Positions 42,961-56,989 of a stretch of 64,000 bases of DNA are shown here, one piece after another. The position numbers and the translations under genes were made by a program. Numbering within the stretch: the first letter of the stretch is position 1; every line of letters starts with the position of its first letter. Where the stretch lies: NCBI GenBank assembly GCA_016745075.1, contig JADGDD010000002.1, positions 385,881-449,880 on the forward strand, written 5' to 3'. The notes under the pieces are model-generated. The model did no database searches and had not been told where the DNA came from. It was given only the letters and a program-made list of their open reading frames with translations. The DNA comes from Planctomycetota bacterium (GTDB taxonomy: Bacteria; Planctomycetota; UBA11346).

Positions 42961-43183
42961 CTGGTCTAAAAGGCTCTATATAAGTCGTCCAGTCTGAAAG
43001 TATGTTTCTTATTTATGTACGCCGTTTCGATGCTTGATAACTGTACTGTGTAAATAGTACTCTGTACCTGTTCTTCGTTCTGTTTCATAAGTACCACAGC
43101 ACCACTTTTAGCTTCACCCAATGGCCTTACATTAAGGCCGAAACACTCTCTTGGTAACAAGAGAAAAGAACAAGGAAAAGACT

Positions 43184-43390
43184 ATGTCTACAACAACCGG
43201 CACCGTTAAATGGTTCAACGAAGCTAAAGGCTTCGGCTTCATCGAGCAAGAATCTGGTCCAGATGTATTTGCTCACTTCAGTGCCATTTCTGGAACTGGC
43301 TTCAAAACTTTGGCTGAAGGCCAAAAAGTTGAGTTCACTGTCACACAGGGCGAAAAAGGTCCTCAAGCAGAAAACATCACACCACTCTAA
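43184..43390 (+). CDS. cspA: Cold-shock protein (CspA family)
   Basis: [35 protein letters not shown] carries the RNP1/RNP2 motifs. 68 aa. ~220-nt leader upstream. Confidence 0.9.
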
Positions 43391-43448
43391 ATAACATTAT
43401 CCTAGGCTGATTCCTTGAGATTCAGTTTACTATAACAAGAGTATTAAA

Positions 43449-43477
43449 AAAGACAGACCAATTGGTCTGTCTTTTTT
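43449..43477 (+). terminator. Intrinsic terminator after cspA
   Basis: AAGACAGACCAATTGGTCTGTCTT perfect palindrome followed by TTTTT. Confidence 0.8.
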
Positions 43478-43562
43478 ATTGAGATTAGAATGGGGCAAAA
43501 GCCGATCTCTTTATCTGTATATGGGCTTCTTGACTACGCTTTATCTCGGGCACAGTTCAGTT

Positions 43563-51475: not shown

Positions 51476-54400
51476 CTATAGGGCGAATAGCGCGCGGGCA
51501 AGTGCCAGTGGCGAGCGAGCCATCCAGGCAACAGAAATGGCTTGGCTGCGTTTGCCAGCAAGTAAGAGCAAGCGAGAAGCGTGTCGGAAATGTTGGCGCT
51601 TAGTGTGCGGCTTTTTCAAGAGGTGACACAGTTGTGCGCCATGCAAATGGGTGAGTGCGGCTAAGTCGCTATGACCATTATCAGAGAAAGCCTGAGCAAA
51701 TTGAGCCAGCATGCGTGGGTATGGCGGTAGCAGTCGTAGGTTTTCAGTAGAAATTTCTGGGTGGTCGCTGACATGAGTTGTTTTGTTAATACCCCATGCT
51801 TGTGGCCAAGCTGCATGGAACAGAGCGATGCGTTCATCTTCCGCCTGTGCATGTTGCGAGGAATGGCCGAGCCAGGCAAAGGCATGGGCAACAGATTGAT
51901 GTTCGAGAGCAAGAAAGGCTCCCAAGACAGTGCGTTCAAGGGCGTGTTGTTGCGGCAGGTCGTTATGGCGAAGGATGGCAATGGCCTCAGGATAGCGACC
52001 AGTAAAGGCAAGGTTTTCTGCGTAGGTAACAGCATGTTCTTCAATGCTGGTATCATGTTCATATAAAGTGTGAGCCAGCTTGAGGGCCAGCTCTGGTTCG
52101 CCCAGTACGGTAACACAACGAATGCGCATCCGCATAATCAGGGCAAAATGTTGGTGAATGTGTTCGTCATTTTCGTCGACTTCGTTTAAGAGGTCACAGA
52201 GAATATCATTGGCGCGTTCTGGATTGTTACAGTCTAGTTCGCATTGCGCGAGCATAATAGCATTTGGTGGATTGAGTACGGTGGCACTATGTAATATAGA
52301 ACGAGCAGAAGCCGCATCATTTTGACGTAGCGCATGCAAAGCCCGCTCGTGGAGGGCGTGCTGTGTTACATGATTATCTTCATGATTACGCAGTTCATCA
52401 AGATCTTTGAGGCGTGCTTCTGTGTCTTCCCGACTCTGCGGATGGCGCAAATAATAGGAATGCGCAGCCAATTGAACAGTGGTATTATTCGGATGCTCTG
52501 TAGAAACGTGGCTCCAGTAATGATGGGCAAGCTCTGGTTTGCCAGCTTGCTCAGCAAGTGTTGCCAATTGCATGGTTAAGGATACGTGCTCTTCATGATT
52601 GTGATCATCTGATTTGCCATCTAAATTACGGTCCAAGATAGTATGTACGTGTTCAAGCTGGCGAACAGCTTCGGAGAAATCTTCATCCTGTTCGGCAATC
52701 ATGGCGGCTAATAAACGTGCTGGAATGTAATCTGGATTGGTGGCGAGGCTTTGTGCAAGCGCTTCACGAGATTCACCAATATTATGAAGGACCAGCAGTG
52801 ATTCTGCTAAGACTAACCATGAGCGGGCAATCGCTTCTGAGTCACCTTGCACTTGTTGTTGATAGAGCCAGAAGGATTGTCTGGTTGCGTGCGCATCTTG
52901 GCCACGCGCAAATAACGGCACAATTTCATGCCACGGTAGCCAGTCTGATTCTTCCAGTAATGGATAGAGATGCCTGAGTGGCGCATCACATGTATCATCT
53001 AAAGCAAGGCGAGTGTAGCGGATACGTAAGCGATAAAAAGAAGGGAAATGTGCGATGCCACGGGCGCACCATTTTCTGGCGAGTGCCGTATCACCATCGT
53101 ACTCTGCAAATTGTGCTGATAAATCAAAAGGCACAGGCGAACGAATAATTAGTTCTTTATTGAGTTCAGCATTTTTTTCCGCTTCGTCATAATGTTCTAG
53201 TACAGAAGCAATTAGTGCCCGAGCATCTGCATGTAATCTTTTAACGCGGGCGGTAGTGGTCTTGCTTGCTTGATCGTTTTCCTGATCATTTTCTGAAGTT
53301 GTGCCGCAGAGTAAACAGCACTGTGCTAGTAAAATTCGAAAGTCTGGCCCGTCATTTAAGTCACAGGCTTTGCGCGCAATGCGTTCTGCCTGCTCTGGGT
53401 GGTCGGGTAATAATAATTCTGCGCGCATTGCCAAGAGTTGAGCATTCTCTGGATGATGATTGATGGTCTCTTCAATCGCTGCTCGTGCGGCACCACGATT
53501 ATTACGTTGGCGTTCTGCTTCAGCAAGAAGCATGGTCAAATGTAAATTGTGTGGAATATTTCGTAGGGCAACGGTGCAGGCATCAGCAGCTTTGTCATAT
53601 GCATCACAAGATAAATGGTATTCAATGAGTTCGCGCCAAGCCCATAAATAATTTGGATCTCTGTCTAGGGCGCGTTCTAAGTGTGGCACCGCAGCTTCAC
53701 GCATGTTGCGATGGCGTAATAAAAAAGCACGCAGGCCTTCGTTGCTGGCATCGCCTGGCTCAATCGTTTCAACATGTTTGCAGGCATCTTCGGCTAAGTG
53801 GTGTTCGTCAGCAACTGCATGCAGCTCCGCTTTTTCTCGCCACGCCCAGGTATAATTTTCATCAAGCTCTACTGCTTTATTCAGCCAAGCTAGCGCTTCA
53901 TCTGCTTTGCCATCATTACGGAGGCAGTCAGCCATATATCCAAAGGTGGTCGCATCATAGGGTGCAATATTACGTGCATGTTCAAGATGGGTATAGGCTT
54001 CCTCTTTCCGACCCATTTGTCGGCAAACATCAGATAATTCATGAAGAATCCACACATTTCTTGGAGCCGAACGCATGGCATTAACTAAGTGTGTGCGCGC
54101 ATTGTCTAGATTATTGGCTAAGCGGGCCAACACGGCTAGTTGGGCGTAGGCCCACGGATATTCAGGATCTTGCAGAAGTGCTTCTTCGCAGAGTTCGGTG
54201 CTGCGTATCGGGTCTTGTTGAGAGAGCGTTTGTGCCAGTTCGACTTTGGCCCAGATGGTATCTGGTGTATCAGCTAATATTTTTTCATACAATTCTATGG
54301 CACGGCTTGTGTTGCCGTTGTCATATTCGAGATTTGCCAATCGGCCACGAATCCACATCACATCTTTGCCATCAGAGCCTTCAGTTCCAGATTGCCCGTG

Positions 54401-55060
54401 GAGAATCGCTAGTTCATAAGAATGACGGGCCTCGTCTGTCATATCGAGGCTACGCTGTGTTTCTGCAAGTTCAGATACAATCCAATAATTCTCAGGGTCG
54501 AGTTCGTGTGCTTCTTCAAGGTACTGAAGGCTTTCTCGTTCATCATTGTCTTGTCGCATGCAGGCACCAATACGGCCAAGAAAGCCTGCGCGCATATGAT
54601 CCTGTTCTTCACCGTCGTTGTTTGCGAGTGACTCCTGAAGTAGTCGCTCTAGTTCGGTGCGGGCTTCAAGGTAACGGCCCTGATTAAAATAGAGATCAGC
54701 AAGTTGATCTGGTGGCGCATCATCAAAATGCACCATGGTTGATTGCAGAACGTCGCGGCAAAGTTGCGCACGAACGGTATCTTCTCTGCGCTCAAAAAAC
54801 ATATGGCAAAAGCGTTGTACATGTCTGTTCGCTTTATTTGAACGAGCGACTTCTTCCAAAGCATGCTCGGCTTGATCTACATCACCAGCACATTCCAAAG
54901 CACTGACATAGCCAAGTCGTGCCCATGGATTGCTTGGCTCGTTGCGAAAGAGTTCTTCGTAACGATTCGCTGCATCCGTATAACGCCCTTGGCGCATCAG
55001 CTCTTCAGCTTCATGAGAGAGCTGCTCATTGTTATCAAAAGAATCACCAGACATAGCCAT
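51476..55060 (-). CDS. Large tetratricopeptide-repeat (TPR) protein, 1194 aa
   Basis: Repeated 34-aa W/LG/Y/A/F/A/P TPR-like units along the whole length (for example AWLNKAVELDENYTWAWREKAELH). Confidence 0.7.
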   Translation of the reverse strand: MAMSGDSFDNNEQLSHEAEELMRQGRYTDAANRYEELFRNEPSNPWARLGYVSALECAGDVDQAEHALEEVARSNKANRHVQRFCHMFFERREDTVRAQLCRDVLQSTMVHFDDAPPDQLADLYFNQGRYLEARTELERLLQESLANNDGEEQDHMRAGFLGRIGACMRQDNDERESLQYLEEAHELDPENYWIVSELAETQRSLDMTDEARHSYELAILHGQSGTEGSDGKDVMWIRGRLANLEYDNGNTSRAIELYEKILADTPDTIWAKVELAQTLSQQDPIRSTELCEEALLQDPEYPWAYAQLAVLARLANNLDNARTHLVNAMRSAPRNVWILHELSDVCRQMGRKEEAYTHLEHARNIAPYDATTFGYMADCLRNDGKADEALAWLNKAVELDENYTWAWREKAELHAVADEHHLAEDACKHVETIEPGDASNEGLRAFLLRHRNMREAAVPHLERALDRDPNYLWAWRELIEYHLSCDAYDKAADACTVALRNIPHNLHLTMLLAEAERQRNNRGAARAAIEETINHHPENAQLLAMRAELLLPDHPEQAERIARKACDLNDGPDFRILLAQCCLLCGTTSENDQENDQASKTTTARVKRLHADARALIASVLEHYDEAEKNAELNKELIIRSPVPFDLSAQFAEYDGDTALARKWCARGIAHFPSFYRLRIRYTRLALDDTCDAPLRHLYPLLEESDWLPWHEIVPLFARGQDAHATRQSFWLYQQQVQGDSEAIARSWLVLAESLLVLHNIGESREALAQSLATNPDYIPARLLAAMIAEQDEDFSEAVRQLEHVHTILDRNLDGKSDDHNHEEHVSLTMQLATLAEQAGKPELAHHYWSHVSTEHPNNTTVQLAAHSYYLRHPQSREDTEARLKDLDELRNHEDNHVTQHALHERALHALRQNDAASARSILHSATVLNPPNAIMLAQCELDCNNPERANDILCDLLNEVDENDEHIHQHFALIMRMRIRCVTVLGEPELALKLAHTLYEHDTSIEEHAVTYAENLAFTGRYPEAIAILRHNDLPQQHALERTVLGAFLALEHQSVAHAFAWLGHSSQHAQAEDERIALFHAAWPQAWGINKTTHVSDHPEISTENLRLLPPYPRMLAQFAQAFSDNGHSDLAALTHLHGAQLCHLLKKPHTKRQHFRHASRLLLLAGKRSQAISVAWMARSPLALARALFAL

Positions 55061-55208
55061 ATAATATATCGAGAGTGCTAGGTGTCTAGGTCAGCAATGC
55101 GCAAAAATAAGTCCGTCTATTTATGGACCCAAAGAGTTAAAACTTTAACTGAGAAGGGGAGGCAAGGGGCTTACTAGCATTAACGAAGCAGACCTATCGT
55201 AGACCCAA

Positions 55209-55850
55209 ACCTTCAAACGGAGGTATAGAGAGTGATGCTCATGTGCATAGAAAATTTGTGTAATAAGGGAAAACGGGAAAGAAAACATATTCAACCCTTC
55301 CCCCTTTCCCAATTTTCCCCACCTTACACAAACCACTCTTCAGACGGATGTATAGAGAGTGATGCTCATGTGCATAGGAAATTTGTGTAATAAGGGAAAA
55401 CGGGAAAACGGGAAAGATGGGAAGGTGGGAAAGAAAACATATTCAATCCTTCCCCATTTTCCAATTTTCCCCTTTCCCCACCTTACACAAACCACTCTTC
55501 AGACGGATGTATAGAGAGTGATGCTCATGTGCATAGGAAATTTGTGTAATAAGGGAAAACGGGAAAGATGGGAGAATGGGAAAGAAAACATATTCAACCC
55601 TTCCCCATTTTCCAATTTTCCCCTTTCCCCACCTTACACAAATCACCCGCTCTACCTTTTACCACTACAATAGAACAAGAGAATCCATGTCTATAAGTTC
55701 CGTAATTAAATCCATTCAAGACATTATGCAGACAGTGCGCTCATGTGCATAGAAAATTTGTGTAATAAGGGAAAACGGGAAAGAAAATATATTCAATCCT
55801 TCCCCTTTTTCTAATTTCCCTTTTTTCCCGCCTTACACAAAATCAACCGA
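55209..55850. repeat. Tandem array of four copies of a structured non-coding repeat (unit ~127-216 bp) containing variable-number GGGAAAR / TTTYCCC subrepeats
   Basis: GATGCTCATGTGCATAG starts at 55234, 55361, 55520 (diverged copy at ~55737). Conserved TTTGTGTAATAAGGGAAAACGGGAAAG...AAAACATATTCAAYCCTTCCCC...ACCTTACACAAA core in each copy. Confidence 0.8.
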
Positions 55851-55866
55851 AAACCCTTCTCTCACA

Positions 55867-56139
55867 CAGAGACACGAAGAAAACAACGGCCAAATCCGCG
55901 TGGATTGCCGTGCTTTGGATGGAACTATTTGGTTGTCTCAAGCACAGATCGCAGAAGCCTTTGGCCGTTCTAAGAAAACCATCAGTGAACATTTTGGAAA
56001 CCTGCTTAATGATGCCGAATTCGATCAACAGGCAGTTGTCCGGAAATTCCGGACAACTGCCGCAGACGGCAAACAGTACGATGTAAACCACTACAACTCG
56101 GAAAAGAAGCCGCAGAGGCTAATGATTTACGAGAGCTGA
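55867..56139 (+). pseudogene. rhuM: Truncated rhuM-family gene (N-terminal ~90 codons only, native start lost into the repeat array)
   Basis: ENNGQIRVDCRALDGTIWLSQAQIAEAFGRSKKTISEHFGNLLNDAEFDQQAVVRKFRTTAADGKQYDVNHYN matches the RhuM N-terminus (…DGETVWLTQAQMAELFGR…DGKQYEVEHYNLD). The reading frame stops after ~80 aa, against ~330 aa for intact RhuM. Confidence 0.6.
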
Positions 56140-56176
56140 AAAGCCTTGAGGATGAACTTAAACGGAAGGGGAACTC

Positions 56177-56359
56177 ATGAGCATTGAACATGCCATTTGG
56201 CAAGTGGACGAACAACCACAGGCTCTTGTGCCCACCACCCTAGAGAGCGAACGGCAATGAGAAGCTTTGATTGTCGCTGATATGCGTATTCTCAATGAAC
56301 AATGGCTGTTAATAGGGCGGCAAGTTCTTACAAACAGCAATGTTGTGGAAACTATGTAA
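56177..56359 (+). pseudogene. Short gene fragment with good RBS and start, interrupted by an in-frame TGA after codon 27 and ending after ~60 codons. Family unidentified, possibly the N-terminus of a nuclease/defence-island gene
   Basis: AAGGGGA SD then ATG. MSIEHAIWQVDEQPQALVPTTLESERQ-TGA-EALIVADMRILNEQWLLIGRQVLTNSNVVETM-stop, all in one frame. Confidence 0.35.
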
Positions 56360-56398
56360 AAGACGTTGACTCTGTTGTAATTAGAGGTCGGATAGTGC

Positions 56399-56989
56399 AT
56401 GCATTGGTCATATTGGATAGTATTTCCGCTGGTAGCGGCGCTGATTGGTTACGCGACGAATTGGATAGCGGTACGGATGTTATTTCACCCACGTAAGCCG
56501 CGTTTTGGTTTGCATGGCTTGTTACCACGCCGACAAAATGAGTTGGCGGAACGGGTTGGTAAGGTGGTTGGTGAAGAGCTTATTGTTTTGGATGAGTTAT
56601 TAGAGCCACTCACCGATATTGATATAACAACACCATTGCGTGAGATCATAGATAAAGTGATGGAAACCAAGTTGGCAGATCTGCAAAAGATGCCACTGAT
56701 TGGTGCTATGATTACCCCAGAACGTTTGGCACCGTTGCGGGAAGGTGTTATTCGTGAAGTCGAAAAACATAAAGAAGAGTTGATGCGGGCAGTTATGCAT
56801 GCGGCTCGTGAAAACATGGATGTGGCAGAATTAGCTCGGCAGAAATTGGCCTCTTTTGAGTTAGATAGATTAGAAGATATTGTGAACCGAGTTGCTCATC
56901 ACGAATTTCGTGCTATCGAGTTATGGGGTGCCGTTTTAGGCCTCTTTATCGGGTTATTGCAAGCAGCCTATTTGTGGGTTATGGTTTAA
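56399..56989 (+). CDS. DUF445 (UPF0754-like) family membrane protein, short form
   Basis: N-terminus WIVFPLVAALIGYATNWIAVRMLFHPRKPRFGLHGLLPRRQNELAERVGKVV matches the DUF445 N-terminal pattern. 196 aa. Confidence 0.55.
   Translation: MHWSYWIVFPLVAALIGYATNWIAVRMLFHPRKPRFGLHGLLPRRQNELAERVGKVVGEELIVLDELLEPLTDIDITTPLREIIDKVMETKLADLQKMPLIGAMITPERLAPLREGVIREVEKHKEELMRAVMHAARENMDVAELARQKLASFELDRLEDIVNRVAHHEFRAIELWGAVLGLFIGLLQAAYLWVMV

Follow-up and report, generated by a model that had tools for sequence, protein, structure and literature searches.

A four-unit tandem array of long imperfect hairpins among truncated defence genes in a Planctomycetota bacterium

In a stretch of 64,000 nucleotides from a Planctomycetota bacterium (assembly GCA_016745075.1, contig JADGDD010000002.1, positions 385,881 to 449,880; hereafter the window), four direct copies of one unit are arrayed at 55209-55841, and each unit is composed of a spacer of about 48 nt followed by an imperfect hairpin of 78-110 nt. 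We tentatively regard the array as a quasi-palindromic tandem repeat private to its lineage, in other words a hairpin-forming minisatellite, which slippage, unequal crossing-over and template switching may have shaped at a hot spot of rearrangement. As part of this explanation, our best reading of the locus is that it was prone to the insertion of horizontally acquired defence genes, which were then whittled away. The array is ordinary in kind among the hairpin-forming intergenic repeats of bacteria, and apparently private. Its parts are given below, with the RNA fold energies of the forward and the reverse strand in that order and the corresponding z values.

55209-55254, forward strand: spacer of unit 1 (CCTTCAAACGGAGGTATAGAGAGTGATGCTCATGTGCATAGAAAA), from the alignment of the four units and the motif search
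55255-55332, forward strand: hairpin of unit 1, with basal stem TTTGTGTAA/TTACACAAA, 2 purine and 3 pyrimidine blocks (inverted repeat I11); -25.1 and -34.4 kcal/mol, z -5.4 and -5.2
55333-55381, forward strand: spacer of unit 2, from the motif search and the unit alignment
55382-55491, forward strand: hairpin of unit 2, with 5 purine and 4 pyrimidine blocks (inverted repeat I2); -46.4 and -55.4 kcal/mol, z -5.8 and -6.6
55492-55539, forward strand: spacer of unit 3, from the motif search and the unit alignment
55540-55643, forward strand: hairpin of unit 3, with 4 purine and 4 pyrimidine blocks (inverted repeat I4); -43.0 and -53.6 kcal/mol, z -6.5 and -7.3
55731-55756, forward strand: partial spacer of unit 4, homologous from AGACAGTG-CGCTCATG onwards, with the left 21 nt of the spacer missing
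55757-55841, forward strand: hairpin of unit 4, with 2 purine and 4 pyrimidine blocks (inverted repeat I10); -26.9 and -27.0 kcal/mol, z -5.8 and -3.6

The whole unit of 127-159 nt, including the spacer, is repeated at 85-95% identity. The 17-mer GATGCTCATGTGCATAG was found by motif search at 55234, 55361 and 55520, and a copy with three mismatches lies at 55736, so that successive copies are spaced by 127, 159 and 216 nt, as a preliminary description of this DNA had reported with the diverged copy at about 55737. These four matches compare with 0.25 expected by shuffling, and the 20-mer TTTGTGTAATAAGGGAAAAC occurs four times against an expectation of 0.00. The periodicity anticipated for a self-alignment was recovered by Tandem Repeats Finder, which gave a period of 151-159 nt with 85-92% matches and scores of 530-559. 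The array is the sole tandem repeat scoring above 63 in the window, as well as its sole long hairpin or long close-spaced inverted repeat. Variation among the units consists mainly of 8-nt blocks of the GGGAAAAC type that were gained or lost.

The spacer of each unit ends in CTCTTCAGACGGATGTATAGAGAGTGATGCTCATGTGCATAGGAA, after which the hairpin starts. The hairpin is layered, with a perfect basal stem of 9-10 bp (TTTGTGTAA/TTACACAAA), an internal loop of 3x4 nt, stacked GGGAAAA/TTTTCCC modules and the loop AAAAYATATTCAAY; in the predicted folds, the stem above the internal loop has 7 bp with bulged bases and the top is variable. Whichever strand is folded, as RNA or as DNA, each of the four units gives a good fold, with z values from -3.6 to -7.3 relative to dinucleotide shuffles and RNA fold energies from -25 to -55 kcal/mol across units and strands. 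The long imperfect hairpin and the conserved loop that had been described were both confirmed in this way.

The arms of the hairpins were examined for signs of a conserved helix. The purine arms of units 1-4 hold 2, 5, 4 and 2 G-blocks, the same counts as reported before, in 15, 40, 32 and 15 nt, and the pyrimidine arms hold 3, 4, 4 and 4 blocks in 28, 35, 35 and 35 nt. Arm lengths correlate weakly across the units, and unit 4 combines a short purine arm with a long pyrimidine arm; the earlier statement that the pyrimidine arm changes in step with the purine arm was therefore too strong. Nor were the arms found to be compensatory as claimed: RNAalifold found a two-sided change in none of 26 consensus pairs, a comparison of four related copies that has low power. 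Among these pairs, 23 are invariant where both bases are present, two vary on one side and one is broken in one unit. Units 2 and 3 are instructive, as their 3' arms are identical and their 5' arms differ by one GGGAAAAC block and by AAGGT versus AGAAT, and despite the differing 5' arms the two units pair in shifted registers. Such pairing is a matter of low-complexity purine/pyrimidine complementarity, unlike a conserved RNA helix.

Unit 4 has the structure of a mosaic. Its 5' half is identical to that of unit 1 at 49 of 49 nt, and its 3' arm carries substitutions at 7 of 44 positions compared to units 2 and 3, with C to T in four cases. A neutral reading leaves this mosaic unexplained; it reflects either gene conversion or a constraint acting on the 5' half. 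To the left of 55731, shuffle tests revealed no similarity of unit 4 to the other units beyond chance. The unit also differs in its potential to form G-quadruplexes (G4). A regular expression for (G3+N1-7)x4 matched the forward strand of unit 2 (55394-55421) and unit 3 (55553-55580) and the reverse strand of unit 1, and found no match in unit 4 or in the rest of the window. The suggestion that both arms carry G4 motifs was not confirmed beyond these three matches, and we rejected the motif as a feature of every unit.

The array is real and not an invention of assembly, because a second assembly of this strain, made independently from short reads (Logan SRR11072027), agrees with the locus at 100% identity over 9,791 nt and breaks exactly at shared 31-mers: it stops at 55266 and restarts at about 55758, where 31-mers become common to units 1 and 4. 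The Logan support covers the outer edges of the array, and the internal number of units comes from one assembly; there is a small chance that the internal copy number alone is an assembly artefact. The Logan unitigs extend 58 nt into unit 1 and through the whole 3' half of unit 4, and their lack of branching in these unit-specific parts speaks against there being numerous near-identical copies in other parts of the genome. An array of this kind breaks short-read assemblies at its shared 31-mers, and like features would be invisible in most metagenome-assembled genomes (MAGs) of the lineage.

Searches for relatives gave negative results at every scale. In the window, no other copy was detected by blastn with word size 7, and a covariance model run with its filters off found only the four units. 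Rfam 15 contained no gathering-level match to the array, and with relaxed settings it returned only noise from eukaryotic microRNA hairpins, the best being MIR2670, whose 40 bits fall far short of the threshold of 117. Exact searches with the most conserved 18-mer returned 16 single matches in a set of one genome for each of 185,579 species and 33 single matches in the JGI metagenomes, both at chance level, and a scan of IMG/VR with five 17-22-mers yielded 0-4 matches each, six in all, which is again the chance level. None of the k-mer matches in genomes, metagenomes or IMG/VR extends past 36 nt, and a covariance model of the unit (R1) found nothing significant in any retrieved genome, metagenome or viral locus. 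No analogous hairpin array was seen in the Planctomycetota contigs examined. Blastn against plasmids and phages returned nothing from the array region other than a stump of the methylase gene hsdM, described below.

We considered small-protein coding and rejected it, in agreement with the preliminary description. The periods of 127 and 159 nt are not multiples of 3, and the frames differ past the variable blocks. When units 2 and 3 were translated in six frames and the translations concatenated, a search of 5.8 billion protein clusters yielded no relative at E<=1, and none of the nine open reading frames of the array occurs in a collection of 15 billion proteins. The array is not a CRISPR either, as had been stated, because the spacers are themselves repeated.

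The setting of the array is made up of gene stumps between two genes of housekeeping type:

55644-55730, forward strand: leader, ribosome-binding site and first 14 codons of hsdM (type I methylase), by blastn
55876-56100, forward strand: N-terminal fragment of a RhuM-like defence candidate (PADLOC PDC-S05, E 1.4e-25)
56178-56342, forward strand: N-terminal fragment of a PDC-S11 defence candidate (PADLOC PDC-S11, E 1.8e-14; 55 of 358 model positions)
51476-55060, reverse strand: left flank, gene of a 1194-aa TPR protein (Pfam), starting 149 nt from unit 1
56399-56989, forward strand: right flank, gene of a DUF445 protein (Pfam PF04286)

The insert of about 90 bp that precedes the last unit had been described as unique, and we found that it is the 5' end of hsdM. 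The stump has its ATG at 55687, reads MSISSVIKSIQDIM and ends after IQDIM; at 55674-55729 it shares 87.7% identity over 57 nt with the start of the gene of an N-6 DNA methylase on the Pseudoalteromonas plasmid NZ_CP133572.1, where the gene sits in an hsdR-hsdM-hsdS locus. The region upstream of hsdM on this plasmid is unrelated to the present locus. The stump is a trace of a cross-phylum transfer of a type I restriction-modification (R-M) system, linking a Planctomycetota-like genome and a gammaproteobacterial plasmid. We also asked whether the spacer could be a degenerate 5' coding or start region of hsdM, and abandoned this idea as local and anchored alignments were no better than shuffles.

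The two other stumps are also incomplete. The RhuM-like fragment, with relatives of 45-55% identity only, matches residues 11-85 or so (about 75 residues) of models for proteins of about 330 aa; a short out-of-context tail follows up to 56181, and the gene is apparently internally deleted near 56100. Two of its homologues (P0116 and P0118) carry Pfam PF13310 Virulence_RhuM. The PDC-S11 fragment has an in-frame TGA at 56259 and breaks off near 56342, shortly before the DUF445 gene begins. No hairpin unit is found at the deletion joints of the RhuM-like fragment (about 56100) or the PDC-S11 fragment (about 56342). Units 1-3 lie upstream of the hsdM start, and unit 4 lies between hsdM codon 14 and the truncated RhuM-like gene, with the truncated PDC-S11 gene next to it. 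The flanks named in the preliminary description, a TPR gene and a RhuM-like remnant, were identified again by Pfam and PADLOC. The interval 55209-56398, bounded by the TPR gene (start at 55060) and the DUF445 gene (start at 56399), is the graveyard of a defence island that was cut to 1.2 kb by several deletions, with hairpin units bracketing stumps. Other genes examined in the window are of the housekeeping type (gyrB, thyA, folA, comEC, dnaJ, grpE, dprA, kinases and helicases), and no gene for an integrase, transposase, reverse transcriptase, recombinase or replication protein was found there, in line with the earlier failure to see ends of insertion sequences.

The source genome represents an isolated and sparsely sampled lineage, which limits comparative tests here. 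The best non-self homologues of the TPR protein among the 5.8 billion clusters have 43% identity, the named ones are proteins of Planctomycetota MAGs, and its own cluster has a single member. A search for an empty site by synteny gave no result, the closest TPR homologues (43% and 41%) being situated in unrelated neighbourhoods. Because the lineage is isolated and has no close relative, no empty-site or ortholog comparison is possible.

How could such an array arise? We suggest that a hairpin-forming sequence associated with the flanks of hsdM may have been tandemly amplified via unequal crossing-over or replication slippage. The 8-nt blocks would grow and shrink through slippage, and intrastrand template switching between the arms would maintain their complementarity. 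At the DNA level, template switching is reported to make hairpins and to "correct" or maintain them without selection on RNA (PMC8794818), and quasipalindromes are hot spots in E. coli (PMC7202029). DNA prone to form hairpins or G4 would stall replication and promote deletions nearby, so that the element, possibly devoid of any dedicated sequence-specific function, would exert a structural effect, namely local genome instability. Two origins of unit 4 fit about equally well. It may have been an original copy between hsdM and the next gene, with hsdM deleted from codon 15 into the spacer; or an R-M unit may have been inserted into the spacer before hairpin 4 of a contiguous array of four units and then almost wholly deleted. 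Of the three candidates proposed in the preliminary description, a slipped-strand or recombination hotspot fits best, with units bracketing hsdM codons 1-14 and the N-termini of the RhuM-like and PDC-S11 genes.

Several observations do not sit well with a hairpin-forming minisatellite. The minus-strand RNA folds 0.1-10.6 kcal/mol more stably than the plus strand, as expected if a minus-strand transcript mattered, and neither the basal stem nor the loop varies among the four units. The 49 identical positions in the 5' half of unit 4, next to a diverged 3' arm, could reflect selection on that half rather than gene conversion. The search for further copies covered the window, and zero copies in about 63 kb still allow about one copy per 20 kb. 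Finally, there is no close relative and hence no empty-site or polymorphism evidence for instability.

Other explanations were considered. One of them, which we consider unlikely, is that the units are a non-autonomous mobile element of the REPIN, MITE (a miniature transposable element with inverted repeats) or organelle "selfish palindrome" type, belonging to a low-copy family elsewhere in this genome that is mobilised in trans; the array would then be a local cluster, and unit 4 would have landed in or next to hsdM and caused the adjacent deletion. Long imperfect hairpins with perfect terminal inverted repeats of 9-10 bp are what such an element would have, and unit 4 lies exactly at the joint of the gene truncation. 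Clusters of REPINs and of bacterial interspersed mosaic elements (BIMEs) can also have conserved linkers. However, the hairpin ends carry no GTAG/CGTC tag (the flanks are CATAG-GAAA and ACAAA-CCAC), and a length of 78-110 nt is the wrong size for the repetitive extragenic palindrome (REP) of 20-40 nt, for which reason we rejected an assignment to REP. By the usual criteria a MITE was rejected as well: the ends resemble terminal inverted repeats, but there is no flanking direct repeat or target-site duplication, and the spacers repeat along with the hairpins, which indicates duplication of the unit rather than independent insertions. There is no further, dispersed copy and no transposase in the 64 kb, no relative was found in any collection, and the Logan unitigs are unbranched inside the unit-specific parts. 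A function as structured RNA, be it that of small-RNA genes in tandem or of a transcript's repetitive leader or insulator, the transcript running on the minus strand toward the TPR gene or as a plus-strand leader of the former hsdM operon, seems distinctly improbable to us. The strong folds (z down to -7.3), the greater stability of the minus strand through G-U pairs, the invariant basal stem and loop and the divergent intergenic site 149 nt upstream of the TPR gene would suit it. Against these stand the absence of covariation in the 26 pairs and the ease with which purine and pyrimidine arms pair in many registers, which makes a good fold cheap. Moreover, a scan of the units found no sigma-70-like promoter in any spacer, nor an intrinsic terminator following a hairpin, the sole match being in the variant loop of unit 4; Rfam offered no family beyond sub-threshold microRNA-hairpin noise; and the other genomes searched contain no homologue, hence no evidence of conservation. 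The small-RNA candidate of the preliminary description accordingly found no backing from promoters or terminators, Rfam relatives or covarying pairs.

Two further explanations deserve very little credit. In the architecture of the hairpins, with a 9-bp basal stem, an unpaired spacer of 3x4 nt, a 7-bp second stem with bulges and a variable top, one may see attC-like sites of single-strand recombination in an integrase-less cluster like the CALIN elements, with the stumps as decayed cassettes; gene fragments do lie between hairpins 3 and 4 and after hairpin 4. But the core pair RYYYAAC...GTTRRRY is absent from the hairpin bases on both strands of 55100-55900, as the preliminary description had noted, and the basal stem ends in TAA/TTA; in this region RYYYAAC was matched only in the loops (at 55289 and 55592). 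Hairpins 1-3 are separated by 48-nt "cassettes" that duplicate one another, a type I restriction locus is atypical as a cassette, and the 64 kb holds no intI or other recombinase gene, so we rejected attC sites and consider an attC-like cluster highly improbable. The chance is similarly slight that the array binds proteins or forms G-quadruplexes for regulation, for example by activating the TPR gene or the lost hsdM operon from upstream sites. Its position upstream of the TPR gene, the three G4 motifs that have no counterpart elsewhere in the 64 kb and a sigma-54 activator gene 5 kb away could be read in this direction. Yet no sigma-54 promoter within two mismatches exists upstream of the TPR gene (55061-55208), the window-wide count of such promoters is at chance, and sigma-54 promoter or activator sites for this gene were rejected on these grounds. 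The G4 motifs are missing from unit 4 and lie on different strands in different units, and the block period of 8-9 nt is off helical phase. Iterons or a replication origin, the remaining candidate of the preliminary description, were likewise rejected, given a unit of 127-159 nt against 17-22 bp for iterons and the lack of any replication gene or origin signal in the window, where the GC skew is positive throughout without a switch.

It is very unlikely, in our estimation, that the array is something not yet described that serves a function, either as attC-like sites through which defence genes (type I R-M, RhuM-like, PDC-S11) enter and leave independently of an integrase, or as a new family of tandem structured RNA in deep-branching Planctomycetota. 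Hairpins acting as recombination or insertion sites, if true, would explain the recombinase-free entry and exit of defence genes at type I R-M loci, and the array would also matter more if the hairpins were a new structured RNA. If, instead, the hairpin-forming minisatellite is the true explanation, the locus would show cleanly, in nature, how hairpin-forming repeats, together with slippage and template switching, sculpt a graveyard of defence genes. As such it would illustrate the decay of a defence island and introduce no new principle.

Known systems resemble the array in part. Like the REPIN and BIME clusters, which are composed of REP doublets, mobilised by RAYT transposases and dispersed in tens to hundreds of copies per genome, it is intergenic and non-coding and consists of long imperfect hairpins in tandem clusters with conserved linkers. 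Unlike these, it has no GTAG/CGTC tag, its arms are low-complexity GGGAAA/TTTCCC blocks of variable number, its copies are all direct and only four, and there is neither a dispersed copy or RAYT (HUH/Y1) gene in the 64 kb nor a relative in the databases. The REP is described as a palindrome of 20-40 bp with a GTAG or CGTC tag at one end, and its biology has been treated with inclusion of Planctomycetes (PMC3733652). The quasipalindromes produced by template switching are also imperfect inverted repeats with arms that are complementary without base-by-base covariation, and as they are hot spots of mutation and rearrangement, a DNA-level origin of the hairpins in the array is plausible (PMC8794818, PMC7202029). 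Those described are single short inverted repeats, whereas the array has a hairpin of 78-110 nt with an internal 8-nt microsatellite and has been tandemly amplified with its spacer. In the "insertion with long target duplication" of R-M systems, both R and M genes are flanked, without a mobility gene, by direct repeats of more than 30 bp that occur at this locus only and are single-copy in the empty-site genome, a recognised pattern (PMC2853133). The array is similar in that locus-specific direct repeats longer than 30 bp (units 3 and 4) bracket a type I R-M remnant and a mobility gene is lacking nearby; it differs in that only the hsdM stump is left between the repeats, and that the repeats are hairpins and were further amplified. 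The array resembles integron attC sites (57-141 nt) and CALIN elements in hairpin size, in the layering of stem, unpaired spacer, stem and variable top, and in having gene fragments between sites. This is resemblance only; the AAC/GTT core triplets and an integrase in the window are absent and the spacers are duplicated.

Some observations were made apart from the array. The RhuM-like coding remnant includes a perfect 15+1+15 palindrome, GGCAGTTGTCCGGAA-A-TTCCGGACAACTGCC, at the codons AVVRKFRTTAA (56029-56063, with perfect arms at 56031-56045 and 56047-56061). RhuM homologues of 45-53% identity keep the palindrome in their DNA, with 14 and 12 of the 15 arm pairs, and have identical codons there (CGG AAA TTC CGG ACA ACT). 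The 19-nt core was found in 48 IMG/VR contigs, compared to fewer than one expected by our own estimate. Among 33 distinct viral contexts that could be recovered around the core, only 3 look RhuM-like; stop codons interrupt the frame of the motif in most of the rest, and the conserved stretch spans only about 27 nt. Six contigs were examined, and in three of them the core lies 0.4-0.5 kb upstream of the genes for the small and large terminase subunits, and some of the IMG/VR matches are within 60-400 nt of contig ends. The string was not found in the literature searched. The palindrome is possibly a phage packaging site or operator that is also carried by one RhuM sub-family.

Upstream of the TPR gene there is only one sigma-70-like match, at 55061-55088 on the reverse strand (TAGACA-16-TATTAT, 10 of 12 positions), and its end abuts the annotated ATG (55060). 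Either the TPR mRNA is leaderless, or the true start codon is further downstream. Elsewhere in the window, the enterobacterial cspA thermoregulator of Rfam (RF01766) gave a full-length match at 43044-43478 on the forward strand, with 84 bits against a gathering threshold of 78. The match overlaps an open reading frame with a cold-shock domain (within 43151-43390), and the conserved coding part may account for most of it; the other proteins of the genome look planctomycetal.

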